Source of the DNA: Pristiophorus japonicus
Taxonomy: Eukaryota
Reading direction: 5' to 3'
NCBI RefSeq assembly: GCF_044704955.1
Contig: NW_027254527.1
Coordinates: forward strand, 1-64,000
Length of the DNA: 64,000 bases
The position numbers and the translations under genes were made by a program. Shown piece by piece: positions 23,766-58,821 of this stretch. The notes beneath the pieces were generated by a model. It saw only the letters and a program-made list of their open reading frames with translations. It made no database searches and was not told where the DNA came from. Position 1 is the stretch's first letter; each line of letters starts with the position of its first letter.

Positions 23766-24084
23766 TGGCTCAGTTGGGAATCATGGTATCATTCTCAGCT
23801 CTGTCAGAAGGTAGTGGGTTCAAGCCCGCTCCAGATCCTTGAGCCCATCATCCAGGCTGATACTCCAGTGCAGTGCTGAGGGAGTGATTAATGCAGTGAC
23901 ATTGACTGGGAGATTAACGCAGTGACATTGATTGGGAGATTAATGCACTGACATTGATTGGGAGATTAACGCACTGACATTGATTGGGAGATTAATGCAC
24001 TGACATTGATTGGGAGATTAACGCACTTACATTGATTGGGAGATTAATGCAGTGACATTGGTTGGGAGATTAACGCACTGACAA

Positions 24085-25617: not shown

Positions 25618-25864
25618 ATTGGGAGATTAATGCACTGACATTGATTGGGAGATTAATGCACTGACATTGATTGGGAGATTAATGCGGTGACACTGATTGG
25701 GAGATTAGTGCACTGATATTGATTGGGAGATTAATGCACTGACATTGATTGGGAGATTAATGCACTGACATTGATTGGGAGATTAATGCACTGACATTGA
25801 TTGGGAGATTAATGCACTGACATTGATTGGGAGATTAATGCACTGACATTGATTGGGAGATTAA

Positions 25865-27835
25865 TAGAAACATAGAAACATAGAAAATAGGTGCAGGAGT
25901 AGGCCATTCAGCCCTTCTAGCCTGCACCGCCATTCAATGAGTTCATGGCTGAACATGCAACTTCAGTACAACATTCCTGCTTTCTCGCCATAACCCTTGA
26001 TCCCCCGAGTAGTAAGGACTACATCTAACTCCTTTTTGAATATATTTAGTGAATTGGCCTCAACAACTTTCTGTGTTAGAGAATTCCACAGGTTCACCAC
26101 TCTCTGGGTGAAGAAGTTTCTCCTCATCTCGGTCCTAAATGGCTTACCCCTTATCCTTAGACTGTGACCCCTGGTTCTGGACTTCCCCAATATTGGGAAC
26201 ATTCTTCCTGCATCTAACCTGTCTGAACCCATCAGAATTTTAAACGTTTCAATGAGGTCCCCTCTCATTCTTCTGAACTCCAGTGAATACAAGCCCAGTT
26301 GATCCAGTCTTTCTTGATAGGTCAGTCCCGCCATCCCAGGAATCAGTCTGGTGAACCTTCGCTGCACTCCCTCGATAGCAAGAATGTCCTTCCTCAAGTT
26401 AGGAGACCAAAACTGTACACAATACTCCAGGTGTGGCCTCACCAAGGCCCTGTACAACTGTACCAACACCTCCCTGCCCCTGTACTCAAATCCCCTCGCT
26501 ATGAAGGCCAACATGCCATTTGCTTTCTTAACCGCCTGCTGTACCTGCATACCAACCTTCAATGACTGACGTACCATGACACCCAGGTCTCGTTGCACCT
26601 CCCCTTTTCCTAATCTGTCACCATTCAGATAATACTCTGTCTCTCTGTTTTTAACCACCGAAGTGGATAACCTCACATTTATCCACATTATACTTCATCT
26701 GCCATGCATTTGCCCACTCACCAAACCTATCCAAGTCACTCTGCAGCCTCATAGCATCCTCCTCGCAGCTCACACTGCCACCTAACTTAGTGTCATCCGC
26801 AAATTTGGAGATACTACATTTAATCCCCTCGTCTAAATCATTAATGTAAAGTGTAAACAGCTGGGGCCCCAGCACAGAACCTTGCGGTACCCCACTAGTC
26901 ACTGCCTGCCATTCTGAAAAGTCCCCATTTACTCCTACTCTTTGCTTCCTGTCTGACAACCAGTTCTCAATCCATGTCAGCACACTACCCCCAATCCCAT
27001 GTGCTTTAACTTTGCACATTAATCTCTTGTGTGGGACCTTGTCGAAAGCCTTCTGAAAGTCCAAATATACCACATCAACTGGTTCTCCCTTGTCCACTCT
27101 ACTGGAAACATCCTCAAACAATTCCAGAAGATTTGTCAAGCATGATTTCCCTTTCACAAATCCATGCTGACTTGGACCTATCATGTCACCTCTTTCCAAA
27201 TGCGCTGCTATGACATCCTTAATAATTGATTCCATCATTTTACCCACTACGGAAGTCAGGCTGACCAGTCTATAATTCCCTGTTTTCTATCTCCGTCCTT
27301 TTTTAAAAAGTGGGGTTACATTGGCAACACTCCACTCGATAGGAACTGATCCAGAGTCAATGGAATGTTGGAAAATGACTATCAATGCATCCGCTATTTC
27401 CAAGGCCACCTCCTTAAGTACTGTGGGATGCAGTCCACCAGGCTCTGGGGATTTATCGGCCTTCAATCCCATCAATTTCCCCAACACAATTTCCCAACTA
27501 ATAAGGATTTCCCTCAGTTCCTCCTCCTTACTAGACCCTCTGACCCCTTTTATATCCGGAAGGTTGTTTGTGTCCTCCTTAGTGAATACTGAACCAAAGT
27601 ACTTGTTCAATTGGTCTGCCATTTCTTTGTTCCCCATTATGACTTCCCCTGATTCTGACTGCAGGGGACCTACATTTGTCTTTACTAACCTTTTTCTCTT
27701 TACATATCTATAGAAACCTTTGCAATCCGTCTTAATGTTCCCTGCAAGCTTCTTCTCGAACTCCATTTTCCCTGCCCAAATCAAAACCTTTGTCATCCTC
27801 TGCTGATTTCTAAATTGCTCCCAATCCCCGAGTTT
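25865..27835 (-). mobile_element. CR1 LINE subfamily B, 5'-truncated
   Basis: Frameshifted RT ORFs 25963-27796. Confidence 0.92.
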
Positions 27836-28668
27836 GCACTGACATTGATTGGGAGATTAATGCACTGATGTTGATTGGGAGATTAATGCGCTGACATTGA
27901 TTGGGAGATTAATGCACTGACATTGATTGGGAGATTAATGCGCTGACATTGATTGGGAGATTAATGCACTGACGTTGATTGGGAGATTAATGCGATGACA
28001 TTGATTGGGAGATTAATGCATTGAACAGTGATTGGGAGATTAATACGGTGACCATTGATTGGGAGATTAATGCACTGACATTGATTGGGATATAATGCAC
28101 TGACGTTCATTGAGAGATTAATGCGATGACATTGATTGGGAGATTAATGCACTGACATTGATTGGGAGATTAATGCATTGAACAGTGATTGGGAGATTAA
28201 TACGGTGACCATTGATTGGGAGATTAATGCACTGACATTGATTGGGATATAATGCACTGACGTTCATTGAGAGATTAATGCGATGACATTGATTGGGAGA
28301 TTAATGCACTGACGTTGATTGGGAGATTAATGCGCTGACATTGATTGGGTATTAATGCGCTGACATTGATTGGGTGATTAATGCGATGACATTGATTGGG
28401 AGATTAATGCACTGACGTTCATTGAGAGATTAATGCGATGACATTGATTGGGAGATTAATGCACTGACGTTCATTGAGAGATTAATGCACTGACATTGAT
28501 TGGGGGATTAATACACTGACCTTGATTGGGAGATTAGTGCACTGACATTGATTGGGAGATTAATGCGCTGACATTGATTGGGAGATTAATGCGCTGACAT
28601 TGATTGGGAGATTAATGCATTGAAGTTGATTGGGAGATTAATGCACTGAACAGTGATTGGGAGATTAA

Positions 28669-31600
28669 TAGAACATAGAAACACAGGAAATAGGTGCAGG
28701 AGTAGGCCATTCGGCCCTTCGAGCCTGCAGCGCCATTCAATGAGTTCATGGCTGAACATTCAACTTCAGCACCCCATTCCTGCTTTCTCGCCATTCCCCT
28801 TGATCCCCCGAGTAGTAAGGACTACATCTAACTCCTTTTTGAATATATTTAGTGAATTGGCCTCAACAACTTTCTGTGGTAGAGAATTCCACAGGTTCAC
28901 CACTCTCTGGGTGAAGAAGTTCCTCCTCATCTCGGTCCTAAATGGCTTACCCCTTATCCTTAGACTGTGACCCTTGGTTCTGGACTTCCCCAACATTGGG
29001 AACATTCTTCCTGCATCTAACCTGTCTAACCCCGTCAGAATTTTAAACGTTTCTATGAGGTCCCCTCTCATTCTTCTGAACTCCAGTGAATACAAGCCCA
29101 GTTGATCCAGTCTTTCTTGATAGGTCAGTCCCACCATCCCGGGAATCAGTCTGGTGAACCTTCGCTGCACTCCCTCAATAGCAAGAATGTCCTTCCTCAG
29201 GTTAGGAGACCAAAACTGTACACAATATTCCAGGTGTGGCCTCACCAAGGCCCTGTACAACTGTAGTAACACCTCCCTGCCCCTGTACTCAAATCCCCTC
29301 GCTTTGAAGGCCAACATGCCATTTGCTTTCTTAACCGCCTGCTGTACCTGCATGCCAACCTTCAATGACTGATGTACCATGACACCCAGGTCTCGTTGCA
29401 CCTCTCCTTTTCCTAATCTGTCATCATTCAGATAATAGTCTGTCTCTCCGTTTTTACCACCAAAGTGGATAACCTCACAATGATCCAGATTATACTTCAT
29501 CTGCCATGCATTTGCCCACTCACCTAACTTAACCAAGTCACTCTGCAGCCTCATAGCATCCTCCTCGCAGCTCACACTGCCACCCAACATAGTGTCATCC
29601 GCAAATTTGGAGAAACTACATTTAATCCCCTCATCTTAATCATTAATGTACAATGTAAACAGCTGGGGCCCCAGTACAGAACCTTGCGGTACCCCACTAG
29701 TCACTGCCTCCCATTCTGAAACGTACCCATTTACTCCTACTCTTTGCTTTCTGTCTGCCAACCAGTTCTCAATCCATGTCAGCACACTACCCCCAATCCC
29801 ATGTGCTTTAACTTTGCACATTAATCTCTTGTGTGGGACCTTGTCGAAAGCCTTCTGAAAGTCCAAATACACCACATCAACTGGTTCTCCCTTGTCCATT
29901 CTACTGGAAACATCCTCAAAAAATTCCAGAAGATTTGTCAAGCATGATTTCCCTTTCACAAATCCATGCTGACTTAGACCTAGCATGTCACCTCTTTCCA
30001 AATGCGCTGCTATGATATCCTTAATAATTGATTCCATCATTTTACCCACTACGGAAGTCAGGCTGACCGGTCTATAATTCCCTGTTTTCTCTCTCCCTCA
30101 TTTTTTAAAAAGTGGTGTTACATTGGCTACCCTCCACTCCGTAGGAACTGATCCAGAGTCTATGGAATGTTGGAAAATGACTGTCAATGCATCCGCTATT
30201 TCCAAGGCCACCTCCTTAAGTACTCTGGATGCAGTCCATCAGGCCCTGGGGATTTATCGGCCTTCAATCCCATCAATTTCCCCAACACAATTTCCCGACT
30301 AATAAGGATTTCCCTCAGTTCCTCCTCCTTACTAGACCCTCTGACCCCTTTTATATCCAGAAGGTTGTTTGTGTCCTCCTCAGTGAATACCGAACCAAAG
30401 TACTTGTTCAATTGGTCTGCCATTTCTTTGTTCCCCGTTATGACTTCCCCTGATTCTGACTGCAGGGGACCTACGTTTGTCTTTACTAATCTTTTTCTCT
30501 TTACATATCTATAGAAACTTTTGCAGTCCGTCTTAATGTTCCCTGCAAGCTTCTTCTCGTACTCCATTTTCCCTGCCCTAATCAAACCCTTTGTCCTCCT
30601 TTGCTGAGTTCTAAATTTCTCCCAGTCCCTGGGTTCACTGCTATTTCTGGCCAATTTGTATGCCACTTCCTTGGCTTTAATACTATCCCTGATTTCCCTA
30701 GATAGCCACGGTTGAGCCACCTTCCCTTTTTTATTTTAACGCCAGACAGGAATGTACAATTGTTGTAGTTCATCCATGCAGTCTCTAAATGTCTGCCATT
30801 GCCCATCCACAGTCAACCCCTTCAGTATCATTCGCCAATCTATCCTAGCCAATTCACGCCTCATACCTTCAAAGTTACCCTTCTTTAAGTTCTGGACCAT
30901 GGTCTCTGAATTAACCATTTCATTCTCCATCCTGATGTAGAATTCCACCATATTATGGTCACTCTTCCCCAAGGGGCCTCGCACAACGAGATTGCTAATT
31001 AATCCTCTCTCATTACACAACACCCAGTCTAAGATGGCCTCCTCCCTAGTTGGTTCCTTGACATATTGGTCTAGAAAACCATCCCAGGAAGCCCTCCAGG
31101 AAATCCTCCTCCACCATATTGCTTCTAGTTTGGTTAGCCCAATCTATATGCATATTAAAGTCACCCATGATAACTGCTGAACCTTTATTGCATGCACCCC
31201 TAATTTCCAGTTTGATCCCCTCCCCAACATCACTACTACTGTTTGGAAGTCTGTACACAACTCCCACTTGCGTTTTCTGCCCCTTGGTATTCCGTAGCTC
31301 CACCCATACCGATTCCACATCATCCACGCTAATATCTTTCGTTACAATTGCATTAATTTCCTCTGTAACCAGCAACACCACCCCAGCTCCTTTTCCTTTC
31401 TGTCTATCTTTCCTAAATGTTGAAACCCCTGGATGTTGAGTTCCCAGCCTTGGTCACCCTGGAGCCATGTCTCTGTGATGCCAACCACATCGTATCCGTT
31501 AACTGCTATCTGCACAGTTAATTCATCCACCTTATTCTGAATACTCCTCGCATTGAGGCACAGAGCCTTCAGGCTTGCCTTTTTAACACACTTATACCCT

Positions 31601-32987: not shown

Positions 32988-33655
32988 GGGACACCCTGCG
33001 ACTGTGAAGCCCCCCCAGGGACACCCCCCAGGGACACCCTCCCCCCCCCCCCCGGGGACACCCCCCAGGGACATCCTGCGACCAGGGACACCCCCCGGGG
33101 ACACCCCCCAGGGACACCCTGCGACCGGGGACACCCCCTGAGGACACCCCCTCTGGGACACCCCCTCTGGGACCGTGAAGCCCCCCAAGGGACACCCCCT
33201 GGGAACACCCTGCGAACCTGAAGTCCCCCGGAGACACCCCCCGGGGACACCCTGCGACCGGGGACACCCCCCTGGGGACACACTCCCAGGGTCACCCCCC
33301 CGGGACACCCCCCTGGGACACCCTGCGACTGTGAAGCCCCCCGGGGACACCCCCTCTGGGACACCCCCTCTGGGACCGTGAAGCCCCCCAGGGGACACCC
33401 CCTGGGGACACCCTGCGAACCTGAAGCCCCCCGGAGACACCCCCCTGGGACACCCTGCGACCGGGGACACCCTGCGACTGTGAAGCCCCCCTGGGGACAC
33501 ACTCCCGGGGACACCCCCCCGGGACACCCCCCTGGGACACCCTGCGACTGTGAAGCCCCCCGGGGACACCCCCCGGGGACACCCCCCCGGGAACACCCTG
33601 CGACTGTGAAGCCCCCCGGGGACACCCCCCCGGGAACACCCTGCGACTGTGAAGG
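32988..33655. repeat. C-rich GGACACCCC-type array within SINE tail sequence
   Basis: Direct inspection. Confidence 0.85.
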
Positions 33656-33854
33656 GCGCTATACAAAGGCGAGTCTTTTTTAAAAACAGGAAAACAAAAT
33701 AAAAACCTGGAAATCTGAATTTGAAAACAAAGTTGTGATGAAAGGTCACGGACCGGAAACGTTTCTCTGACCCCAGCCGCGGCCGGAGCTGCTGAACGTT
33801 TCCAGAGCGGGCGGCACGGTGATATCAGTCGGTCATCTTCCACCCTGGGACTGG

Positions 33855-34358
33855 GGGGTCAGTGGGGGTCAGAGCGGGGTGGGTGGGGGTCAGAGCGGGT
33901 CAGAGCGGGGTCGGTGGAGGTCAGAGCGGGGTCGGTGGAGGTCAGAGCGGGGTGGTTGGGGGTCAGAGCGGGGTGGGTGGGGGTCAGTGTGGGTCAGAGC
34001 GGGGTCGGTGGAGGTCAGAGCGGGGTCGGTGGAGGTCAGAGCGGGGTCGGTGGAGGTCAGAGCGGGATCGGTGGAGGTGAGAGCGGGGTCGGTGGGGGTC
34101 AGAGCGGGTCGGTGGGGGTCAGAGCGGGGTCGGAGGGGGTCAGAGCGGGGTCGGTGGGGGTCAGAGCGGGGTCGGTGGGGGTCAGAGCGAGGTCGGTGGG
34201 GGTCAGAGCGAGGTCGGTGGGGGTCAGAGCGGGGTCGGTGGGGGTCAGAACAGGGTCGGTGGGGGTCAGAGCAGGTCGGTGGGGGTCAGAGCGGGTCAGA
34301 GCGGGGTCGGTGGGGGTCAGAGCAGGTCGGTGGGGGTCAGAGCGGGGTCGGTGGGGGT
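33855..34358. repeat. 21-bp G-rich minisatellite (GGTCAGAGCGGGGTCGGTGGG)
   Basis: Direct inspection. Confidence 0.9.
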
Positions 34359-34605
34359 CCTTCTCATCTCAGTTTTAAATGGGCGACCCCTTACTCTGAA
34401 ACTATTCCCCTAGTTGTAGATTCCCCCACGAGGGGAAATATCCTCTCTGTGTCGACCTTGTCGAGCCCCCTCAGAATCTTATATGTTTCAATAAGGTCAC
34501 CTCTCTGTCTTCTAAACTCCAACTTACTCAGCCTTTCCTCATAAGTCAACCCCTTCATCTCAGGAATCAACCTGGTGAACTTCTCTGAACTGCCTCCAAT
34601 GCCAG
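34358..34605 (-). mobile_element. CR1 fragment
   Basis: FTRLIPEMKGLTYEERL...RGDLIETYKI. Confidence 0.8.
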
Positions 34606-34649
34606 TATAATGTTGTCTTTGGGGACAGATGGACAATAGCCGCCCATTG

Positions 34650-36375
34650 GCAGTGGCTCAGTGGGCAGCACTCTCGCCTCGGACTCACGTGGGCGTGGGT
34701 TCAAGTCCCGCTCCGGAGACTTGAGCACATAAATCTAGGCCGACACTCCCAGTGCAGTGCTGAGGGAGTGCTGCACTGTCGGAGGGGCAGTACTGAGGGA
34801 GCGCCGCACTGTCGGAGGGGCAGTACTGAGGGAGTGCCACACTGTCGGAGGGGCAGTACTGAGGGAGTGCTGCACTGTCGGAGGGGCAGTACTGAGGGAG
34901 TGCTGCACTGTCGGAGGGGCGGTACTGAGGGAGTGCCGCACTGTCAGAGGGGCAGTACTGAGGGAGTGCCGCACTGTCGGAGGGGCGGTACTGAGGGAGC
35001 GCCGCACTGTTGGAGGGGCGGTACTGAGTGAGCGCCGCACTGTCGGAGGGGCAGTACTGAGGGAGTGCTGCACTGTCGGAGGGGCGGTACTGAGGGAGTG
35101 CCGCACTGTCGGAGGGGCAGTACTGAGGGAGTGCTGCACTGTCAGAGGGGCGGTACTGAGGGAGTGCCGCACTGTCGGAGGGGCAGTACTGAGGGAGTGC
35201 CACACTGTCGGAGGGGCAGTGCTGAGGGAGTGCTGCACTGTCGGAGGGGCAGTACTGAGGGAGCGCCGCACTGTCGGAGGGGCAGTACTGAGGGAGTGCC
35301 ACACTGTCGGAGGGGCGGTACTGAGGGAGTGCCGCACTGTTGGAGGGGCGGTACTGAGTGAGCGCCGCACTGTCGGAGGGGCAGTACTGAGGGAGTGCTG
35401 CACTGTCGGAGGGGCGGTACTGAGGGAGTGCCGCACTGTCGGAGGGGCAGTACTGAGGGAGTGCTGCACTGTCAGAGGGGCGGTACTGAGGGAGTGCCGC
35501 ACTGTCGGAGGGGCAGTACTGAGGGAGCGCCGCACTGTCGGAGGGACAGTACTGGGGGAGTGCTGCACTGTCGGAGGGGCAGTACTGAGGGAGTGCCACA
35601 CTGTCGGAGGGGCAGTACTTGAGGGAGTGCTGCACTGTCGGAGGGACAGTACTGAGGGAGTGCTGCACTGTCGGAGGGGCAGTACTGAGGGAGTGCCGCA
35701 CTGTCGGAGGGACAGTACTGAGGGAGTGCCGCACTGTTGGAGGGGCAGTACTGAGTGAGCGCCGCACTGTCGGAGGGGCAGTACTGAGGGAGTGCTGCAC
35801 TGTCGGAGGGTCGGTACTGAGGGAGTGCCACACTGTCGGAGGGGCAGTACTGAGGGAGTGCTGCACTGTCAGAGGGGCGGTACTGAGGGAGTGCCGCACT
35901 GTCGGAGGGGCAGTACTGAGGGAGCGCCGCACTGTCGGAGGGACAGTACTGGGGGAGTGCTGCACTGTCGGAGGGGCAGTACTGAGGGAATGCCACACTG
36001 TCGGAGGGGCAGTACTTGAGGGAGTGCTGCACTGTCGGAGGGACAGTACTGAGGGAGCGCCGCACTGTCGGAGGGGCAGTACTGAGGGAGTGCTGCACTG
36101 TCGGAGGGGCAGTACTGAGGGAGCGCCGCACTGTTGGAGGTGCATTCTTTCAGGTGAATGGTTAAACTGATTCCCTGAGGTCCTGGGCCAATACTTATCC
36201 CTGAAGATCACAAAAACAGATGATCTGGTCATTACCAGCTTGTTTTGTGTGGGAGCTTGCTGTGCACAAACTCGCTATCATTATGTTACACTTCAAAAGT
36301 ACTTCAGCGGCTGTAAAGCGCTCAGGGACATCCTGAGATCATCAAAGGCGCTATATAAATGCAAGTTCTTCCTTT
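34650..36375 (+). mobile_element. tRNA-derived (DeuSINE-like) SINE with an internal 33-bp unit amplified about 40 times (34750-36135)
   Basis: A-box GTGGCTCAGTGG, B-box GGTTCAAGTCCC, tail GGCGCTATATAAATGCAAG. Confidence 0.75.
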
Positions 36376-36424
36376 CACAACTGTTTCTAATGCATGACGA
36401 TCAAGCTTGGTTAAAAAAAAGAAA

Positions 36425-37300
36425 TACTTGCATTTATACAACACCTTTCACAACCACCGGACGTCTCAAAGTGCTTTACAGCCAATGAAGTACTTTATGA
36501 AGTGTAGTCACTGTTGTAATGAAGGAATCAATATTGGCCTAGGACACCGGGGATAGCCCCACCTGCTCTTCTTCGAAATAGAGCCATTGGATCTTTTACA
36601 TCCAAATGAGAAAGCAGGCGGGGCCTCGGTTTAACATCTCATCGCTCAGCGCTCCCTCAGTACTGCCCCTCCGACAGTGCAGCAGTCCCTCAGTACTGCC
36701 CCTCCGACAGTGCGGCGTTCCCTCAGCACTGCCCCTCCGACAGTGCAGCACTCCCTCAGTACTGCCCCTCCGACAGTGCGGCGCTCCCTCAGTACTGACC
36801 CTCCGACAGTGCGGCGTTCCCTCAGTACTGCCCCTCCGACAGTGCAGCACTCCCTCAGTACTGCCCCTCTGACAGTGCAGCACTCCCTCAGTACTGCCCC
36901 TCCGACAGTGCAGCACTCCCTCAGTACTGCCCCTCCCACAGTGCAGCACTCCCTCAGTACTGCCCCTCCGACAGTGCAGCACTCCCTCAGTACTGCCCCT
37001 CCGACAGTGCGGCGCTCCGACAGTGCAGCACTCCCTCAGTACTGCCCCTCCGACAGTGCGGCGCTCCGACAGTGCAGCACTCCCTCAGAACTGCTCCTCT
37101 GACAGTGCAGCACTCCCTCAGTGCTGCCCCTCCAACAGTGCAGCACTCCCTCAGTACTGCCCCTCTGACAGTGCAGCACTCCCTCAGTACTGCACTGGAG
37201 TGTCTGCCTGGATTTAAATATTCAAGTCCCTGGAGTGGGATTTGAACCCACAACCTCCTGACTCCGAGGCGAGTGAGCTGCCCACTGAGCCACGGCTGAC
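36425..37300 (-). mobile_element. Same SINE family in opposite orientation, with 33-bp array at 36650-37195
   Basis: Reverse-complement A/B boxes at 37238-37295 and the same repeat unit. Confidence 0.75.
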
Positions 37301-37674
37301 ACTGGAACCTGTGAAATCTAACCCAGTTAGGGGATAAATGATGACATGGAATTGGCACAGCACTAAGATCGAGTCCTTCACTGGAACAGTCAAGCTCGAG
37401 AACACATGGGAAATATAAAGTGATTTGTTCAGAATCTAACCGGACTGATCACTGACTTCACACTGAAGCAAAAACGTATTCATTCCCTGAGCCTCACAGA
37501 ATATTGAAGAACGGCAAATCATGTGTTTCTGTCATGGGACAATAACTGCTCTGCCGTCTCCCACAATGAGGGCCCCAGAGCGTTCCCACCTTCTTGTTGA
37601 TTTGTTTTGCACTTTTTATATGAAACTAAACTGCTGCAGTTTGCTTTCATACCTAAAGAACAGGTATTCCGAAG

Positions 37675-40005
37675 TACCTGTCCTGGGAGTGTTTAGTGGG
37701 ACAGTGTAGAGGGAGCTTTACTCTGTATCTAACCCCCTGTACCTGCCCTGGGTGTGTTTAGTGGGCCATGTAGAGGGAGCTTTACTCTGTATCTAACCCC
37801 CTGTACCTGCCCTGGGAGTGTTTGATTGGTCATGTAGAGGGAGTTTTACTCTGTATCTAACCCCGTGCTGTACCTGCCCTGGGAGTGTTTGATGGGATAG
37901 TGTAGAGGGAGCTTTACTTTGTATCCAACCCCGTGCTGTACCTGCCCTGGGAGTGTTTGATGGGACAGTATAGAGGGAGTTTTACTCTGTATCGAACCCC
38001 CTGTACCTGCCCTGGGAGTGTTTGATGGGACAGTGTAGAGGGAGCTTTACTCTGTATCTAACTCGTGCTGTACCTGCCCTGGGAGTGTTTGGTGGGACAG
38101 TGTAGAGGGAGCTTTACTCTGTATCTAACCCCCTGTACCTGCCCTGGGTGTGTTTGATATGACAGTGTAGAGGAAGCTTTACTCTGTATCTAACCCCATG
38201 CTGTACCTGCCCTGGGAGTGTTTGATGGGCCATGTAGAGGGAGCTTTACTCTGTATAGAAACATAGAAAATAGGTGCAGGAGCAGGCCATTCAGCCCTTC
38301 TAGCCTGCACCGCCATTCAATGAGTTCATGGCTGAACATGAAATTTCAGTACCCCCTTCCTGCTTTCTCGCCATAACCCTTGATCCCACGAGTAGTAAGG
38401 ACTTCATCTAACTCCTTTTTGAATATATTTAGTGAATGGCCTCAACAACTTTCTGTGGTAGAGAATTCCACAGGTTCACCACTCTCTGGGTGAAGAAGTT
38501 TCTCCTCATCTCGGTCCTAAATGGCTTCCCCCTTATCCTTAGACTGTGACCCCTGGTTCTGGACTTCCCCAACATTGGGAACATTCTTCCTGCATCTAAC
38601 CTGTCTAAACCCGTCAGAATTTTAAACGTTTCCATGAGGTCCCCTCTCATTCTTCTGAAATCCAGTGAATACAAGCCCAGTTGATCCAGTCTTTCTTGAT
38701 AGGTCAGTCCCACCATCCCGGGAATCAGTCTGGTGAATCTTCGCTGCACTCCCTCAATAGCAAGAATGTCCTTCCTCAAGTTAGGAGACCAAAACTGTAC
38801 ACAATACTCCAGGTGTGGCCTCACCAAGGCCCTGTACAACTGTAGCAACACCTCCCTGCCCCTGTACTCAAATCCCCTCGCTATGAAGGCCAACATGCCA
38901 TTTGCTTTCTTAACCGCCTGCTGTACCTGCATGCCAACCTTCAATGACTGATGTACCATGACACCCAGGTCTCGTTGCATCTTCCCTTTTCCTAATCTGT
39001 CACCATTCAGATCATAGTCTATCTCTCTGTTTTTACCACCAAAGTGGATAACCTCACATTTATCCACATTATACTTCATCTGCCATGCATTTGCCCACTC
39101 ACCTAACCTATCCAAGTCACTCTGCAGCCTAATAGCATCCTCCTCGCAGCTCACACTGCCACCCAACTTAGTGTCATCCGCAAATTTGGAGATACTGCAT
39201 TTAATCCCCTCATCTAAATCATTAATGTACAATGTAAACAGCTGGGGCCCCAGCACAGAACCTTGCGGCACCCCACTAGTCACTGCCTGCCATTCTGAAA
39301 AGTACCCATTTACTCCTACTCTTTGCTTCCTGTCTGACAACTAGTTCTCAATCCACGTCAGCACACTACCCCCAATCCCATGTGCTTTAACTTTGCACAT
39401 TAATCTCTTGTGTGGGACCTTGTCGAAAGCCTTCTGAAAGTCCAAATATACCACATCAACTGGTTCTCCCTTGTCCAGTCTACTGGAAACATCCTCAAAA
39501 ATTCCAGAATATTTGTCAAGCATGATTTCCCTTTCACAAATCCATGCTGACTTGGACCTATCATGTCACCATTTTCCAGATGCGCTGCTATGACATCCTT
39601 AATAATTGATTCCATCATTTTACCCACTACGGAGGTCAGGCTGACCGGTCTATAATTCGCTGTTTTCTCTCTCCCTCCTTTTTTAAAAAGTGGGGTTACA
39701 TTGGCTACCCTCCACTCGATAGGAACTGATCCAGAGTCAATGGAATGTTGGAAAATGACTGTCAATGCATCCGCTATTTCCAAGGCCACCTCCTTAAGTA
39801 CTCTGGGATGCAGTCCATCAGGCCCTGTACCTGCCCTGGGAATGTTTGGTGGGCCATGTAGAGGGAGCTTTACTCTGTATCTAACCTCGTGCTGTACCTG
39901 CCCTGGGTGTGTTTGATGGGCCATGTAGAGGGAGCTTTACTCTGTATCTAACCCCCTGTACCTGCCCTGGGTGTGTTTGGTGGGCCATGTAGAGGGAGCC
40001 TTACT
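37675..40005. repeat. 64-66-bp minisatellite (37675-38255 and 39825-40005) split by a CR1
   Basis: Direct inspection. Confidence 0.9.
38255..39825 (-). mobile_element. CR1 LINE subfamily B inserted into a 64-66-bp minisatellite
   Basis: RT ORFs 38429-39825. Confidence 0.92.
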
Positions 40006-40971
40006 TTACACTGATGTCAATGGAATGCTAACTCAGACGGAGTGTGATACCAGCTGCTGATTTGCCATGAACCGATTTACTATACCACCCAAAGGCAATT
40101 ACAGCTTTGTGGAATGAGACACAGGAGGAGACCGGTCAGCCAGCCACGCCTGGTCGAGCTCACGAATTAATCCCAGTCCCCTGCTTGTTCACCATAACCT
40201 TGTAAAAGGTTTTCACATGAAGTATTTATCCAATTCTCATTTAAAAGATACTGTGGAACCTGCTCCCACCGCCCTTTCACACATTGCGTTCCAGATCATA
40301 ACAACTCGCTGTGTAAAACCTTTCCTTATTTACCCCAATATTGTCTCCAAAAGTTTCCCCACTGAAGTCAGGCTGACTGGCCTGTTGCTCCCTTATACCC
40401 TTCACCTGCTTTCTCAATTCATAGAAACATAGAAAATAGGTGCAGGAGTAGGCCATTCAGCCCTTCGAGCCTGCACCACCATTCAATAAGATCATGGCTG
40501 ATCATTCCCTCAGTACCCCTTTCCTGCTTTCTCTCCATACCCCTTGGTCCCTTTAGCCGTAAGGGCCACATCTAACTCCCTTTTGAATTTTAAAAACTGC
40601 TTCTTCCCCAAGGAAAACAAACTGAAGTGTCCTTAATTCCAACAATAAATCCCGAGATATTTTTAATATCCGTGCAATGCTGACTGAGGCTGTTCATTAT
40701 ACCGGATGGGCCTCATACACTACATTACCGTATGAGGTTGATGGGTGTTTTTGTGACTGGAAGGATGTTTCCAGTGGGGTTCCGCAGGGCTCAGTACTGG
40801 GTCCCTTGCTTTTTCTGGTATGTATCAATGATCGAGACTTAAATGTTGGGGGTATGATTAAGAAGTTTGATACTAAAATTGGCCGTGTGGTTGATAATGA
40901 AGAAGAAAGCTGTGGACTGCAGGAAGATATCAATGTACTGGTCAGGTGGGCAGAACTGTGGCAAATGAAAT

Positions 40972-43176
40972 ACAAATCAAAGCTTTTACCGATATATAAA
41001 ACGGAAAAGAGTGACTAAAGTAAATGTTGGTCCTTTAGAAGATGAGAAGGGGGATTTAATAATGGGAAATATGGAAATGGCTGAGACCTTAAACAATTAT
41101 TTTGCTTCGGTCTTCACAGTGGAAGACACAAAAACCATGCCAGAAATTGCTGGTCACGGGAATGTGGGAAGGGAGGACCTTGAGATAATCACTATCACTA
41201 GGGGGGTAGTGCTGGACAGGCTAATGGATCTCAAGGTAGACAAGTCCCCTGGTCCTGATGAAATGCATCCCAGGGTATTAAAAGAGATGGCGGACGTTAT
41301 AGCAGATGCATTGGTTATAATCTACCAAAATTCTCTGGACTCTGGGGAGGTACCAGCGGATTGGAAAGCAGCTAATGTAACGCCTCTGTTTAAAAAAGGG
41401 GGCAGACAAAAGGCAGGTAACTATAGGCCGGTTAGTTTAACATCTGTAGTGGGGAAAATGCTTGAAACTATCATTAAAGAAGAAATAGCGGGACATCTAG
41501 ATAGGAATAGTGCAATCAAGCAGACGCAGCATGGATTCATGAAGGGGAAATCATGTTTAACTAATTTACTGGAATTCTTTGAGGATATAATGAGCATGAT
41601 AGATAGAGGTGTACCGATGGATGTGGTGTATTTAGATTTCCAAAAGGCATTCGATAAGGTGCCACACAAAAGGTTACTGCAGAAGATAAAGGTACGCGGA
41701 GTCAGGAAATGTAATAGCATGGATCGAGAATTGGCTGGCTAACAGAAAGTAGACAGTCGGGATAAATGGGTCCTTTTCAGGTGGGAAATCAGTGGTTAGT
41801 GTTGTGCCACAGGGATCGGTGCTGGGACCACAACTGTTTACAATATACATAGATGACCTGGAAGAGGGGACAGAGTGTAGTGTAACAAAATTTGAGAATG
41901 ACACTAAGATTAGTGGGAAAGCGGGTTGTGTAGAGGACACAGAGAGTCTGCAAAGAGATTTAGATAGGTTAAGCGAATGGGCTAAGGTTTGGCAGATGGA
42001 ATACAATGTCGGAAAATGTGAAGTCATCCACCTTGGAAAAAAAACAGTAAAAGGGAATATTATTTGAATGGGGAGAAATTACAACATGCTGCGGTGCAGA
42101 GGGACCTGGGGGTCCTTGTGCATGAATTTTCTCTAAGATTCTTTTCCCATACCATTCGCCTCCAACCTTCCTCTTTCTGCTCATAGCTCTTGTGATGCCA
42201 ACCCTTCCACTGCAGCCAGGGTTCATCCAATTCAGGATCTAATCTTGGGGCTGCAAAGACTCCAACCAGGCACAAAGAAAGTACACAGTAGATCTTCATC
42301 CTTTCTTCTTCGCTCCCTGCCGCTCCCGGGCTACAATCTATCGTACTCGCGAGCGCCACCAGTTTTTATGGATCGCGTCATCCCCGCACTGATACATTTT
42401 CAGCACTGATTGGCTGGCCCATCCAGGCATGGACCACACCCAGTCACGAGATGCAGTGCTCAGAGTGTGCTGTCGATTCATGAATCCCAAAAAGTTAGTT
42501 TTCAGGTGCAGCAGGTAATCAGGAAGGCGAATGGAATGTTGGCCTTCATTGCGAGAGGGATGGAGTACAAAAGCAGGGAGGTCCTGCTGCAACTGTATAG
42601 GGTATTAGTGAGGCCGCACCTGGAGTACTGCGTGCAGTTTTGGTCACCTTACTTAAGGAAGGATATACTAGCTTTGGAGGGGGTACAGAGACGATTCACT
42701 CGGCTGATTCCGGAGATGAGGGGGTTACCTTATGATGATAAATTGAGTAGACTGGGTCTTTACTCGTTGGAGTTCAGAAGGATGAGGGGTGATCTTATAG
42801 AAACATTTAAAATCATGAAAGGGATAGTCAAGATAGAGGCAGAGAGGTTGTTTCCACTGGTCAGGGAGACTAGAACTAGGGGGCACAGCCTCAAAATACG
42901 GGGGGGCCAATTTAAAACAGAGTTGAGAAGGAATTTCTTCTCCCAGAGTCTGTGGAATTCTCTGCTCAAGGAAGCAGTTGAGGCGAGCTCATTAAATGTA
43001 TTCAAGTCACAGATAGATAGATTTTTAACCAATAAGGGAATAAGGGTTACGGGGAGCGGGTGGGTAAGTGGAGCTGAGTCCACGGCCAGATCAGCCATGA
43101 TCTTGCTGAATGGCGGAGCAGGCTCGAGGGGCTAGATGGCCTACTCCTGTTCCTGATATGTTCTTATGTTCTTATG
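40972..43176 (+). mobile_element. CR1 LINE subfamily A carrying the cathepsin L fragment, inserted in an older CR1
   Basis: RT motifs in 41011-42067; ORF2 C-terminus in 42480-43080; tail at 43155-43176. Confidence 0.92.
42128..42478 (-). pseudogene. ctsl: Captured cathepsin L-like 5' fragment (upstream sequence, 5'UTR and about 57 codons of prepropeptide) inside a CR1
   Basis: ATG at 42299: MKIYCVLSLCLVGVFAAPRLDPELDEPWLQWKGWHHKSYEQKEEGWRRMVWEKNLR, a signal peptide plus the I29 propeptide EEGWRRxxWEKN motif. Flanked by a CATGAAT duplication. Confidence 0.88.
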
Positions 43177-44889
43177 AAATGTGAGGTAATGCATTTGGGG
43201 AGGTCTAACAAGGAAAGGAATACACAATAAATGGTAGGACACTGAGAAGTGTAGAGGAACAAAGGGACCTGGGAGTGCAGGTCCACAGATCCCTGAAGGT
43301 AGCAGGCCAGGTAGATTAGGTGGTTAAGAAGGCATACGGAGTGCTTGCCTTTATTGGCCGAGGCATATAATATAAGAGCAGGGGGTTATGCTTGAACTGT
43401 ATAAAACACTAGTTAGGCCACAGCTGGAGTACTGCCTGCAGTTCTGGTCACCACATTACAGGAAAGATGTGAATGCACTGGAGAGGGTACAGAGGAGATT
43501 TACATAGATACATAGATACATAGAAAATAGGTGCAGTTGTCGGCCATTCGGCTCTTCGAGCCTGCACCACCATTCAATATATGAGGATCTGCCTGGGTTG
43601 GAGAATTTTGTCTATGAGGAAAGATTGGATAGGCTGGGGTTGTTTTCTTTGGAACAGAGGTGGCTGAGGGGAGACCTGATTGAGGTGTATAAAATTATGA
43701 GGGGCCTGGATAGGGTGGATAGTAAGGATCTGTTCCCTTAGCAGAGGGGTCAACAACCAGGGAGCACACCCGATTTACTATACCACCCAAAGGCAATTGC
43801 ATCTTTGTGGAATGATAAACAGGAGGAGGCCGTTCATCCAGGTAGGAGGTCTAGAGGGGTGGTGGGGGTCTGGAACTCACTGCCTGAAAGGGTGGTAGAG
43901 GCAGAAACCCTCACCACATTTAAAAAGTACTTGGATGTGCCGTAACCTACAGGGCTACGGATCAAGAGCTGGAAAGTGGGATTAAGCTGGGTAGCCTCTT
44001 GGTCAGCCGGCACGGACACGATGGGCTGAATGGCCTCCTTGCATGCTGTAAATTTCTATGATTCTATGATATGATTACAGTACATTAGCGACCTCCTACT
44101 CTACCTTTCTGTTAACCGAGTCCAGAACACAAGCTCGGGCTCAACTGATGAGTTCAACATCTTTGCAGAACTGTTCATTCAATATTCACCCCGATTGATA
44201 GGTTGGAGGACTGTTCTATTAACTTATAGGAAACAGAGGGGAGAGAGACAGAGACAAAGGAGGATAGGGGAACAGCAAGAGAGGGCAAGAAATAAAGAGG
44301 GGAGAAAGAAAGAACAAAAACAAAGAAAAGAATCAAAGGAGGAAAGGTGAGGATGAAAGGAGGCAATAAACGAGGCGAAGGAGAGAGTGAGGAAAGGAAG
44401 GGGTAGCCAATCCCCAGTCAGAAAATTCAGACAATAAACACCACAAAAAAACATCGAAAGCATCCGGGCACAAGATACGTTTGGCTGTCCAGTTTTCAAA
44501 GCCTTTCTGGCAAAGAAGGATGTGTGTTGGAAGTGCACAGGCCGAGGGGTTTTCAAAGCAGTTAGTTTAACTGGACCAAGTGTTTGTGCTCAGTGAGGTG
44601 TGTTGTTCCACACCACACAGTGTGTGTTAGAATCCAGTCCAGATAGATACACCAGGTGTAAGAACAGTTCCACACAGTGTGTGTTAGAATCCAGTCCAGA
44701 TAGATACACCAGGTTTAATGACAGTACTACACTGTACAGTGCATGTTAGAATCCAGTCCAGATAGATACACCAGGTGTAATGAAAGTCTACTTTGTGCTC
44801 TGCCCCGACAAGGTTAGGGAGGGCCATTGAAGCTCCCTTTACCGCGAACGGGCCATAAAGCTGCATCTCAAACAGATCATAGGATTAAC

Positions 44890-45990
44890 AATGGATATAC
44901 GGCACAGAAACAGGCCATTCGGCCCAACCAGGCCATGCTGCTGTTTATGCCCCACTCGAGCCTCCTCCCGTCTTTCCTCATCTAACTCTATCAGCATAAC
45001 CCTCCATACCCTTCTCCCCCATTGGCTTGTCCAGCCTCCCCTTAAATACATCGATACTATTCACTTCAATCACTCCCTGTGGCAGCGAGTTCCACATTCT
45101 CATCACTCTCTGGGTAAAGGAGTTTCTCCTGAATTCCCCATTGGATTTCTTGGTGACTACCTTATATTGATGACCTCTAGTTATGCTCTTCCCCACAAGT
45201 GGAAACACCTTCTCTGTATCCACCCTATCAAAACATTCCATAATTGTAAAGACCTCTATTAGGTCACCCCTCAGCCTTCTTTTTCCAAGAGAAAAGAGAC
45301 CCAGCCTGTTCATCCTTTCCCGATATGTATACCTCGCATTTCTGGTATCATCCCTGTAAATCTGTCTCCTTTCTCTAATATGGTGACCAGAACATTACGC
45401 AGGACTCCAAGTGTGGTCTAACCAAAGCTCGATACAGGTTTAGCATAACTTCCCTATTCTTCAATTCGATACCTCTAGAAATATACCCGAGTGCTTGCCT
45501 GGCTAACCAACATCACAATTTTTAATGATTTGTTCCAAGATCCCTTTGTTCCTCTATCCTACCTAGACTCACACCCTCCAAGTAATAAGTGACCTCCCTA
45601 TCCCTTAATCAACATAACAAAAACAGATTATCTGGACATTATCATGTTGCTGTGTGTGGGAGCTTGCTGTGCACAAATTGGCTGCCATGTTTCCCACATT
45701 ACAACAGTGACTACACTTCAAAGTACTTCATTGGCTGTAAAATGCTTTGAGAAGTCTGGTGGCCGTGAAAGGCGCGATATAAATGCAAGTCTTTCTTTCT
45801 CCCTAACAAAATGTAATACGTGCTCGGTGAACTTAATTTGCCAGTTTGCCCATTCTGTAAGTTTATTAATGTCCTCCTGTAAGTTGTTGCAGGCCTCCTC
45901 AGTATTGACGGTCGCCAAGTTTGGTGTCAGCCGCCAATTTAGAAATTGTGCTTTTGATTCCAAAGTCTAAACCGTTAATATAAATTATAT
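44890..45990 (-). mobile_element. Degenerate CR1 with a SINE tail inserted at about 45615-45800
   Basis: RLGLFSLGKRRLRGDL...FTQRVMRMWNSLP. Confidence 0.75.
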
Positions 45991-46437
45991 AAGACCATCT
46001 CATTTCCCACACGCCTTGCCTTAATTTGAGATGCTGCCTCCATTAAAAGGAGCGGGTCAGAACCGCCCGAGTGATAAACCTTGTTCCACTCACACTGCAA
46101 GAGGAGATCTTACTCCATCCATTACACTTGCACTCTGCCAGATTTAGTCATCAATGAGTTAATACATGTGTGTGAAATTCCCTCCTCCAATGTTTTAACC
46201 CAATAATTGTGAACATCATTCAAACTGAACAGAAAAATCTGATACCAATAGACTGCCAATTAACAGATCCATTGCTGTTATTGCTAAGGAACGATTTCGA
46301 CTGCACAGAAATCCTTCTAGTTCTCAACCCTTGAATTGGTTCAGTTCAAGCTGAGGTTTCAGAGACGAGAGGTGAATTAAACACTAAATTGGGAGCATGC
46401 ACCGCGCAGATAGTTAAACGGCGACTGTCCAGGCACA

Positions 46438-46920
46438 ATAAGAACATAAGAAATAGGAGCAGGAGTCAGCCATACGGCCCCTCGAGCCTGCTCCGCCGTT
46501 CAATAAGATCAATGGACTCAGCTCCATTTCCCTGCCCGCTTCCCATAACCCTTTATTCTCTTATTGCTTAAAAATCTATCTTCCTCCACCTTAAATATAT
46601 TCAGTTACCCAACCTCCACAGCTTTCTGGGGCAGAGAATTCCAGATTCATGACCCTCAGAGAAGAAATTCCTCCTCATCTGTTTTAAATGGGCGGCCCCT
46701 TATTCTGAAACTATGCCCCCAGTTCTAGATTCCCCCACACGGGGAAACATCCTCTCTGCATCCACCTTGTCGAGCCTCCTCAGAATCTTATATGTTTCAA
46801 TAAGATCACCTCTCATTCTTCTGAACTCTAATATATAGGTCCAATCTGCTCAACCTTTCTTCATTAGACAACCCCTTCATCTCAGGAATTAACCGAGTGA
46901 ACCTTCCCTGAACTGCTCCA
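46438..46920 (-). mobile_element. CR1 3' fragment
   Basis: (TTCTTATG) tail and ORF2 C-terminal similarity. Confidence 0.8.
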
Positions 46921-47620
46921 CAATACAGTATCAACAGGACACAACCTTATGACACATGCAGCCGTTTGCTATCGGTCCGGCAGCTCGCTGGTTAATGCTG
47001 AACGCTTGTTGGTGTGAGACATGTTTGATAAACACAAGTCCCTGTTTCTCATTCTGTGCAAACTATTTGCCCTCCATCAGCACTGAAATATCCAGTGGAA
47101 CCTGGAACTTATTCTGTTTTACATCTAAAAGCTGTTCCTTCAATGATGTTAACTGTAACCTTAAACAACAGTCTGTGACTCCAACTGTTAAATCCCGACA
47201 CAATTGGATACTGTGTTTTAACTCGGATTATAACAAACCCCTAAAGCGCCTGCAATGTCCTACCGTCCAAATGATCAAATCTCCACCCACAGAGCAAGTG
47301 TCCCAAAACTAGAATGTGTATCCCGCAGCTCAGACTGAACACATCCTGTAAAGCCAATAACCTCCTCATTTATTAGATTCCGGGAATCAATTCTGTGGGC
47401 TTAAATCTTAACCCTGAACACTCCATCCAGTTAGCAGATGTCAGCCACAATTACTGGGTGTATTTTTAACTCGAAAGAATGGAGTCAGTCTCGGATAGAG
47501 TCGCGTAATTATTCTGAATATCTCACCGATTTCACACATTCGTGTATTACCGAATTCGCTAAATAACGCAAATTAAGAAAATCAATATCAGATCAGGAAG
47601 GAATGAGAAGTTTGTCTTAC

Positions 47621-56438: not shown

Positions 56439-56865
56439 TCACCTCCACCTTGTTCCTTGAGCTGGCCTTCCCCTGCCGCCGGGTCACAGTTAGGGCGGCG
56501 ATGTCGATGAAACGTCGGAGTTCCTGGGCAACTATAGCAGTGCGATGTTCTGGTCTGTCGCTGTTGTGGTTGTCCATGAGGGTCCTGATGTTCCAGATCC
56601 CGAACTTCATTCTCGAGAGTGGAAGATGCCTGTGCGTGAATTCGTTTATCGTGGGGTGGCCATCGCACACCAGCTTCCACATGGACTTGACGGAGCAAGG
56701 TCTTGGTCCCATCACAAGGTCTTGGTCCCATCACAAGGTCTTGGTCCCATCACAAGGTCTTGGTCCCATCACAAGGGGACCCAAGACAATTGGAGACCGG
56801 GCTCTTCTGCATCCTCGAGAATTAATAAATATATCAATTCTTAGATATGTCCCAAGGCCCAGCTT

Positions 56866-57800
56866 CAGGTCACCCCAGGAATCCCCTGCTAATCCTCATC
56901 ATAGGCCGTCCCCCCAGAGCCAGGATTCCCCGCTAATCTTCATCATAGGCCGTCCCCCCAGAGCCAAGAATCTCCCGCTAATCTTCATCACAGGCAGTCC
57001 TCCCGGAGCCAGGAATCCCCCGCTAATCTTCATCACAGGCAGTCCTCCCGGAGCCAGGAATCCCCCGCTAATCTTCAACATAGACCATCCCCCTGCAGCC
57101 AGGAATCCCCCGCTAATCTTCATCATAGGCAGTCCCCCGGAGCCAGGAATCCCCCGCTAATCTTCAACATAGGCCTTCCCCCCGGAGCCAGGAATCCCCG
57201 GCTAATCCTCATCATAGGCCAACCTCCGGAGCCAGGAATCCCCCGCTAATCTTCATCATAGGCCGCCCCCCCGGAGTCAGGAATCCCCCGCTAATCTTCA
57301 TCATAGGCAGTCCCCTGGAGTCAGGAATCCCCCGCTAATCTTCATTATAGGCTGTCCCCTGGAGTCAGGAATCCCCCGCTAATCTTCATCATAGGCCATC
57401 CCCCGGAGCCAGGAATTCCCCACTAATCTTCATCATAGGCAGTCCCCTGGAGTCAGGAATCCCCCGCTAATCTTCATCATAGGCCATCCCCCGGAGCCAG
57501 GAATTCCCCACTAATCTTCATCATAGGCAGTCCTCCCGGAGCCAGGAATCCCCCGCTAATCTTCATCATAGGCCGCCCCCCCGGAGCCAGGAATCCCCCG
57601 CTTATCTTCATCATAGGTCATCCCCCCGGAGCCAGGAATCCCCCGCTAATCTTCATCATAGGCCATCCCCCGGAGTCAGGAATCCCCCGCTAATCTTCAT
57701 CATAGACCATCCCCCGGAGCCAGGAATCCCCCACTAATCTTCCTCATAGACCATCCCCCGGAGCCAGGAATCCTCCGCTAATCTTCATTATAGGCAGTTC
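56866..57800. repeat. About 43-bp minisatellite (CCGGAGCCAGGAATCCCCCGCTAATCTTCATCATAGGCAGTCC)
   Basis: Direct inspection. Confidence 0.95.
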
Positions 57801-58035
57801 CTATAATGGGGGGTGGGGGGCAGATGATGGGTGGGTGGGGTGGGGTGCGCAGACTTTGGGGAGGGGGGCAGACAGTAGATTGGTGGGGGGGGTCTGGGCT
57901 GTATGATCCTGGGGCTTCCCAGCTAATGCCCTCTCCCATTCCCGGGGGGGGCGGGGGCAGATCCCAACACAGCGAGGCTCGGGGTGAGCCATGGTGCTTC
58001 CCCTTTCACTGATTCCCCTGACTGTAGTGCGGCTG

Positions 58036-58074
58036 AGTTTTTGTACCAGCCCAGCCCTGCTTCCTCTCACTGTG
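58036..58074 (-). other. V 23-RSS
   Basis: Minus strand CACAGTG + 23 nt + ACAAAAACT. Confidence 0.95.
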
Positions 58075-58373
58075 TCTCGCACAGTAATAGATGGCGGTGT
58101 CGTTGGCTGTCAGTTTGCTGATTTCCAGGTACGCGATGCTGCTGGCCTTGGACACGGTAAATTTGAAGTGTTGAAGTCCAGGTGAGTAATACTTTTTATT
58201 GTCATATCCTATGGTCGCCAGCCACTCCAGCCCTTGCCCGGGGGCCTGTTTAACCCAGGCAATGCTGTTGCTGTCGAGGCTGAAGCCACTGACTGTACAG
58301 GACAGTTTGTGAGACTCCCCGGGCCGTTTCACGGCAGCAGCAGACTGTCTCAGCTCGATGGCGGACCGCACGC
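58075..58373 (-). CDS. IgW: IgW VH exon (GVRSAIELRQ...GESHKLSCTVSGFSLDSNSIAWVKQAPGQGLEWL...DTAIYYCAR), unrearranged
   Basis: Acceptor ttctgttcacag|GC; open frame with first Cys, W-x-K-Q-x-PG-x-GLEW and D-x-A-x-YYC-AR V-set motifs, followed directly by an RSS. Confidence 0.95.
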
Positions 58374-58481
58374 CTGTGAACAGAAGAGAGAGTGAGAAGG
58401 GTGCACTTTAATACAGGGAACAACACGGGCTCACACAGCCTCCCGGACAAGCCAGGCAGCACTGGGTGCACAATAACTCAC

Positions 58482-58527
58482 CCATCACACAGGCCAGAAG
58501 GACACCGAGACAAGCAGCACTCGCCAT
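58482..58527 (-). CDS. IgW: IgW heavy-chain leader exon 1 (MASAACLGVLLACVM+G)
   Basis: ATG at 58527; 46-nt hydrophobic leader ending in phase-1 donor G|GTGAGT; 108-nt intron to the V exon, as in Ig V genes. Confidence 0.9.
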
Positions 58528-58611
58528 TACCCCTGTGTGTGCAGACAGACAGACACACGCCACAAATCGGTAGCTTCAGGGCGCCTTGGTGTGGGGACCC
58601 AGTCGGTGCTG

Positions 58612-58700
58612 TTTAAATAGGGAACTGGGCTGAGTGAGTGAGTGAGGTTCCAACAGAGGCACACCCACTCAAACCACAGGTTCAGCTTCCTCTCACCGCC
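58612..58700 (-). promoter_or_regulatory. Putative VH promoter: TATTTAAA box, RUNX-like and PU/ETS-like sites
   Basis: TATTTAAA (58619-58612) about 85 nt upstream of the leader ATG; TGTGGTT near 58675 and GAGGAAG near 58690 on the minus strand. No octamer seen. Confidence 0.55.
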
Positions 58701-58821
58701 CCCAGCACATATTTCAATTCCCTGATTTATTTATACAGCATGTCCCCAGCAAGAATCAGTTCCGCATTCAAAGTCCAGGGACACTTTGCTTCTGGTTATT
58801 TATTTGAATGTTAAACAGAGA

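Follow-up and report, generated by a model that had tools for sequence, protein, structure and literature searches.

The locus and its features

The window, as we call the whole 64,000-nucleotide stretch of Pristiophorus japonicus DNA analysed here, carries on its plus strand, at about 40.9-43.2 kb, a decayed LINE of the CR1 type, read from the letters and matched by the RVT_1 profile, which is broken by foreign sequence. The foreign sequence is an insert of 351 bp (42128-42478) on the minus strand, antisense to the CR1, with CATGAAT on either side. The original prediction had placed a cathepsin L fragment at 42128-42299; the insert turns out to be about double that length, reaching 42478, and the 178 further bases are upstream and exon-1 sequence of the parent gene. 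The features, in window coordinates, are as follows.

40979..42127, plus strand: host CR1-type LINE with a 5'-truncated ORF2, portion 5' of the insertion (RVT_1 E 1.7e-13; 94-97% identity to paralogues)
42121..42127, plus strand: left repeat of the 7-bp target duplication, CATGAAT (found once only in 22 of 26 non-duplicate paralogues)
42121..42127, plus strand: putative Tx1 nick inside the left duplication copy, after CATGA, plus or minus one base (Tx1 tails start immediately past GTGCATGA)
42128..42176, minus strand: cathepsin L exon 3, first 49 nt, ending at the AAAAA run of the mRNA (parent C1:103751784-103751832)
42177..42300, minus strand: cathepsin L exon 2, 124 nt (100% identity to parent C1:103751934-103752057; procathepsin L match)
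42177..42300, minus strand: content of exon 2, namely the ATG at 42299-42297, the signal peptide and the start of the propeptide
42301..42478, minus strand: exon 1 and upstream sequence, 178 nt, spliced from an AAG/GTACGA donor (parent C1:103752869-103753046, 97% identity)
42413-42409 and 42370-42364, minus strand: promoter-like motifs in the 178-nt piece, CCAAT and the TATA-like CATAAAA, respectively
42479..42485, plus strand: right copy of the target duplication CATGAAT (2-nt microhomology, TG, to the parent at the 5' junction)
42486..43176, plus strand: host CR1, portion 3' of the insertion, to its 3' tail (91-95% identity to paralogues)
37800..47500, no strand: block of segmental duplication, this being its minimum extent, common to contigs C3873, C2079 and C3019 (97-99% identity, about 9.5-10 kb)

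The minus-strand open reading frame of the insert, P0001, encodes MKIYCV...YEQKEEGWRRMVWEKNLR. Among solved structures it comes closest to procathepsin L (E 4.5e-10), which bears out the identity proposed earlier, and it matches Inhibitor_I29 weakly (E 0.012), under the cut-off. The copy codes for only 50 residues and then enters antisense CR1; it is a dead, non-functional fossil. Its antisense orientation, its 3' truncation and its lack of poly(A), all of them anticipated, can be seen directly. An Rfam search across the window gave no matches.

A spliced cathepsin L transcript as the template

A search of the animal's own genome with the insert returned seven matches from six candidates, all scored. 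Four of them are full-length copies, and the other three are parts of a single gene on contig C1. Between these parts (178, 124 and 49 nt) the parent gene has GT..AG introns, 811 and 101 bp long, both precisely absent from the insert. Human CTSL has an intron at the position equivalent to YEQ/KEEGWRR (YGM/NEEGWRR), and it is exactly at YEQ/KEE that intron 2 of the parent (101 bp) sits, where the original prediction had expected an intron. Contigs from two public sequencing runs of one study also skip the 101-bp intron. Since both parent introns are missing from the insert, the template was a spliced RNA, as had been proposed, and the suggested comparison with the parental ctsl locus came out as foreseen, with introns 1 and 2 present in the parent and lost from the insert.

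The exact loss of both introns is what a processed pseudogene would display. The copy lacks the mRNA 3' end and poly(A) of the classical kind, stopping 49 nt into exon 3 without a tail, and has the features of a tailless retropseudogene: a retained 5' end, which is a putative cap site, a truncated 3' end, no oligo(A) and a target duplication.

Two exon-1 donors (G000:C1:103752804 and 103752868), separated by 64 nt, and two TATA-like motifs with a spacing of 140 nt can be recognised in the parent gene. The insert starts 108 nt upstream of one TATA-like motif and 32 nt past another TATAA, and its exon-1 donor lies 64 nt upstream of the donor joined to exon 2 in both runs, whose contigs (two runs, one study) span no part of insert positions 42308-42478. 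Judging from the sequence, the template was likely a minor isoform that used the upstream start and the upstream exon-1 donor.

A single insertion into an empty site

The four copies of the insert share flanks of about 10 kb at 97-99% identity, far past the ends of the CR1, and are therefore segmental duplicates of one event. Among the best 30 CR1 matches, which include these four duplicates, the 26 non-duplicate paralogues contain the cathepsin insert in no case; 22 are uninterrupted, with the site present once, so that the 7-bp target duplication is proved against an empty site, and the remaining four carry a Tx1-like element at the same place. A CR1 family with cathepsin L as cargo, which the original prediction had implied by that word, was considered and rejected on these grounds: the sequence entered a CR1 copy, duplicating the target as it did so, and owes its multiplication to segmental duplication alone. 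A cargo or template-switch chimera would be expected to lie in the sense of the LINE and to have spread to unrelated loci, whereas this insert is antisense and its copies have common flanks.

Changes common to the four copies amount to 18 of 1,059 positions in the CR1 flanks (1.7%) and to 6 of 351 between insert and parent (1.7%). The divergences being equal, the ages give no order for the CR1 and cathepsin insertions. Five of the six shared changes of the insert fall in the non-coding 178 nt, and they may be parent-side or allelic.

A Tx1-clade LINE has its fixed target at the insertion site

The likely inserting agent was absent from the original prediction. The element that occupies the site in four of the 26 paralogues is GC-rich and unlike the insert, and it is likewise antisense to the CR1. 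It has an ORF1 with a zinc knuckle and an ORF2 with APE-type endonuclease and reverse transcriptase domains; the closest named relative of this ORF2 is that of Xenopus Tx1L (49% identity over 97%), and by its sequence the element belongs to the Tx1 clade. Its insertion is sequence-specific, with at least 7,008 exact junctions of site and tail among 53,978 occurrences of the site 18-mer (13%) and none for a reversed-pattern control. A first junction pattern, with 1,124 matches, was discarded, as it captured mostly older CR1 variants.

Of the 11 Tx1 copies nearest to the query, nine have their end at GTGCATGA, and all those inspected at the CR1 site are antisense to the CR1. Their target duplications end at the same CATGAA and, in the two of four inserts that 10 kb of sequence sufficed to resolve, measure 14 and 15 bp. 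Since the tail does not vary, the nick can be put after CATGA, no more than one base from the cathepsin junction; for an insertion landing at random, the chance of coming within 1 nt of the site, on this strand, is about 1.4e-5. The insertion does not lie at the L1 target consensus TT/WAAAAWW; the site reads GTGCATGA/ATCCC, which is the Tx1 target.

Other RNAs at the same nucleotide

Further passengers were sought among hand-picked junctions with a non-Tx1 continuation, chosen by their left junction. U6, 7SL and tRNAs occur at the site, on the same strand, in five of 20 such loci, and 5S in one of 20 of a second hand-picked set. A SINE-like family with poly(A) and a U2-like head (Rfam U2 E 1e-5 on L142, under the gathering score; U1 E 0.07) lies antisense at the Tx1 site (loci L138, L142, L182-L184, L189, L190, L192, L194, L195, L198, L199, L201, L202, L205, L207 and L247) and resembles the crocodilian SINEU. 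The insert at L197 has one parent (G000:C18:99001675-99001839), from which its poly(A) is absent, and is 5'-inverted; that at L204 has two genomic matches, and the A-run at its end, about 20 nt past AATAAA, is also found in the genome.

Directly past the site, a T-run was matched 49 times at 41 distinct places, of which 19 resemble Tx1 tail variants; past a control CR1 18-mer located 18-35 nt downstream it was never matched, a control present in 19 of the 44 empty-like sites that were fetched. Antisense orientation to the CR1 is shared by the non-Tx1 RNA inserts that were looked at, L169 being the one clear exception. Inspection by eye of the hand-picked junction loci turned up no other spliced coding insert.

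Junctions and duplication lengths

On the RNA 3' side, CTTAGAAAAATTGAAC in the parent corresponds to CTTAGAGAAAA in the insert, after which the target begins; one non-parental G near the junction is common to all four copies. Homology of this breakpoint to ATTCATG is 2-3 nt if the G is an inserted base and 0 if it is a substitution, and a 6-nt target match 40 nt further 3' in the mRNA went unused. Priming through a long ATTCATG homology was accordingly rejected. Of the mechanism first put forward, the geometry stands, that is, priming from the plus-strand 3' end (CATGA/A/T) and copying toward the RNA 5' end, but internal priming guided by ATTCATG does not, the microhomology expected at the mRNA breakpoint being limited to 2-3 nt or none.

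The breakpoint sits at the sole five-A run in the 586 nt examined. Tailless copies typically end at an A-rich internal stretch with some complementarity to the target; here that complementarity would be 0-3 nt, depending on the alignment. The mRNA end AAAAAUU appears to resemble the Tx1 element's own end, AAAAGAGUU, and at four loci with Tx1 copies at the CR1 site (L191, L196, L244 and L246) these start at an internal A-tract of their own. The 5' side junction has 2 nt of homology.

At 7 bp, the duplication of the cathepsin copy has half the usual length for Tx1's own copies, 14-15 bp. In a sample that is not random (loci hand-picked by the left junction, with inserts resolved in the fetched DNA at 52 of 158 sites, 50 of them unique), an automatic table gave duplications of at least 11 bp for 18 of 21 Tx1-tailed inserts vs 6 of 29 others, and shorter ones for 3 of 21 and 23 of 29, respectively. 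After hand correction, in which L214 and L228 were moved to Tx1, L148 was dropped as unclear, and L125 and L147 were re-read as long, long duplications accompany 20 of 23 Tx1 and 5 of 26 non-Tx1 inserts (p 2e-6). The pattern, with short duplications going to passengers, is opposite to that of human L1, where short duplications are reported to go with 5'-truncated copies made in cis and not with passengers moved in trans (PMC2912911).

How the retrocopy may have been made

A retrocopy that has lost two introns, carries a 7-bp duplication against an empty site and goes back to a single origin shares its nucleotide and strand with thousands of Tx1 copies and with other cellular RNAs. Its position at the exact landing site of Tx1 suggests that the Tx1 enzyme likely pasted it in, and we consider it highly probable that it arose by target-primed reverse transcription in trans, with the Tx1 ORF2 protein priming at the nick that it had itself made. 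The Tx1 endonuclease would nick the CR1 plus strand after ...GTGCATGA, and the Tx1 reverse transcriptase would take cathepsin L mRNA in place of its own RNA. Synthesis would start at AAAAAUU of the mRNA, much as at the element's own end, somewhat more probably at an internal position than at a broken 3' end, and would proceed for about 350 nt to, or near, the 5' end of the likely minor transcript with its upstream start and upstream exon-1 donor. The usual overhang of 14-15 nt would be trimmed before the 5' side is joined by the 2-nt microhomology, leaving a duplication of 7 bp, and the region would later have been segmentally duplicated to four copies. As far as the sequence goes, priming at the A-run followed by UU and priming at a broken RNA end fit equally well.

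The counterpoint to this proposal is the 7-bp duplication, short vs the 14-15 bp of Tx1's own copies. Moreover, since the insert has no Tx1 tail, it does not itself name the reverse transcriptase and assigns only the cut site. The cut is assigned to the Tx1 family, and the copying was very probably its work as well.

It is improbable, though worth weighing, that the Tx1 endonuclease made the cut and that the break was patched by cathepsin L cDNA of another reverse transcriptase (L1, RTE, CR1, an LTR element or a repair polymerase). Such patching would suit the missing tail, the short microhomologies at both ends and the shortened duplication; inserts close to the site do occur with very short duplications or with minor deletions, and internal fragments of spliced mRNA without poly(A) are described at Cas9 breaks by Ono et al. 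(2015; PMC4516963). Capture should, however, be blind to strand, whereas the non-Tx1 RNA inserts are antisense save for L169 and the orientation of the present insert agrees with Tx1 priming; besides, the insert has a duplication, and its left flank is unbroken up to the nick. Inserts made by this repair of breaks with reverse-transcribed products resemble the cathepsin copy in comprising spliced, poly(A)-less mRNA fragments, in their microhomology and in the nuclease cut, but they are reported to be usually truncated at both ends and mostly to lack a duplication (PMC4516963). The cathepsin copy, unlike them, keeps its 5' end, has a duplication and obeys the strand rule of Tx1.

Still harder to uphold is the view, the nearest of the alternatives to the original prediction, that the reverse transcriptase of CR1, during the insertion of this CR1 copy, left its cDNA for the mRNA while making the second strand and then resumed 7 nt further back. 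The geometry would be identical and the divergences of CR1 and insert, 1.7% each, are indistinguishable; yet such a switch would have no preference for this nucleotide, making coincidence with the Tx1 target a matter of about 1e-5, and the breakpoint homology is only 0-3 nt with the better 6-nt match nearby unused. A switch of template in first-strand CR1 synthesis had rightly been excluded from the outset. The least credible of all is copying, at the DNA level, of a cathepsin L retrogene that already lacked introns, or else a CR1 subfamily with the sequence as its cargo, since the four copies and the promoter-like motifs that might speak for it are set against shared flanks of about 10 kb past the CR1 ends, the lack of the insert in all 26 other close CR1 paralogues, and a genome search (six of six candidates scored) in which no other intronless source was found.

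Relation to known systems

Target-primed reverse transcription in trans by Tx1, the reading we prefer, can be set beside several systems. Tailless retropseudogenes (Noll et al., 2015; PMC5322556) are therian, with the anole as the only reported case outside mammals, and are ascribed to relaxed L1 activity at TT/WAAAAWW; the class includes mRNA-derived cases, and internal priming was proposed. Like them, the cathepsin copy retains its 5' end, is truncated at the 3' end, lacks poly(A), has a duplication and stops at an A-run; unlike them, it lies at a sequence-specific Tx1 target inside CR1, in an animal that the matches to the Tx1 ORF2 place likely among cartilaginous fishes. In crocodilians, Tx1-Mar LINEs and SINEU (Kojima, 2015; PMC4494074) exemplify Tx1 families that target another transposon, partly in antisense, and trans-mobilisation was concluded there from a shared target preference, the same logic as is used here for the cathepsin copy. 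The crocodilian targets are Mariner, Harbinger, LTR elements and microsatellites, and the passengers are SINEs, whereas here the target is CR1 and the passenger a spliced coding mRNA. Tx1L of Xenopus laevis (YTX2; PMC1950540) likewise has a sequence-specific endonuclease aimed at another mobile element, but its target is the DNA transposon Tx1D, it is described as stringent, and the accessible part of that paper mentions no mRNA passenger.

Tailless retropseudogenes are known, then, as are Tx1 families that target transposons and move SINEs in trans; what is added is a host mRNA at a Tx1 site in CR1. In the open literature searched, no report of a CR1-targeting Tx1 element and no case of a host mRNA copied to a Tx1 target was found. 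The makers of gene retrocopies outside mammals have mostly been deduced from correlation, and it is by correlation that a 2026 preprint on 14,081 retrocopies in cartilaginous fishes names CR1 or Tx1 (10.64898/2026.06.26.734816). With a spliced mRNA at a site-specific Tx1 target, the address itself names the likely maker, which would tie a host-gene copy to a named element outside mammals, and it extends tailless retrocopies past the L1 of mammals and lizards. We lean towards a broader picture in which Tx1 is strict on DNA and relaxed on RNA, parking tailed and tailless host retrocopies at one nucleotide of some 54,000 CR1 copies, with passengers finishing their insertion differently; the genome would then hold a barcoded experiment of nature, from which the enzyme that makes processed pseudogenes outside mammals could be read off. 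A single pattern search lists every passenger, so that the choice of RNA and the poorly understood joining of the 5' side become testable in vivo.

Further observations at the site

Short ends of unique sequence, most of them A-tailed, were also seen at the site (L197, L204, L188, L203 and L150). A tRNA-headed SINE with the Tx1 terminal AAGAG recurs at L124, L144, L154, L157 and L262; the copy at L154 has a 7SL head, and that at L144 is 3'-truncated at AAAATT, as is the cathepsin copy. Chains of RNAs within single insertions at L134, L145, L200 and L245 (tRNA-tRNA-U6, tRNA-tRNA-Tx1 tail, tRNA-5S and three tRNAs), two to four small RNAs per insertion, suggest frequent template jumps. Between target and tail, 1-3 additional bases, reading as an A-tail followed by U's, are found at L142, L144, L145, L182, L183, L190, L198, L201 and L202, which would point either to RNAs uridylated at the 3' end or to bases that the enzyme added without a template. 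At L254, L255, L256, L055, L116 and L127 a short duplication of the site encloses no passenger and just one or two additional A's, and these look like aborted insertions.

Distant Tx1 subfamilies (L086-L107) end at other fixed motifs, CCACAG or of the CAGCTC type, which suggests shifts of target; by eye, CCACAG sits, in another CR1 subfamily, at the homologous codon position. In the 3' tail of Tx1 (L045:128-170), the words TTTGCAGGTG and CCCAAAA recur just past the CR1 target (window 42486-42510) in swapped order, possibly by chance or possibly through pairing of RNA and target. The 64-kb contig as a whole is dominated by minisatellite arrays (49 TRF rows; window 1-23000, 33000-38300 and 56700-64000), has internal repeats at about 24000-30300, and looks like a duplicated region of the subtelomeric or microchromosome type.
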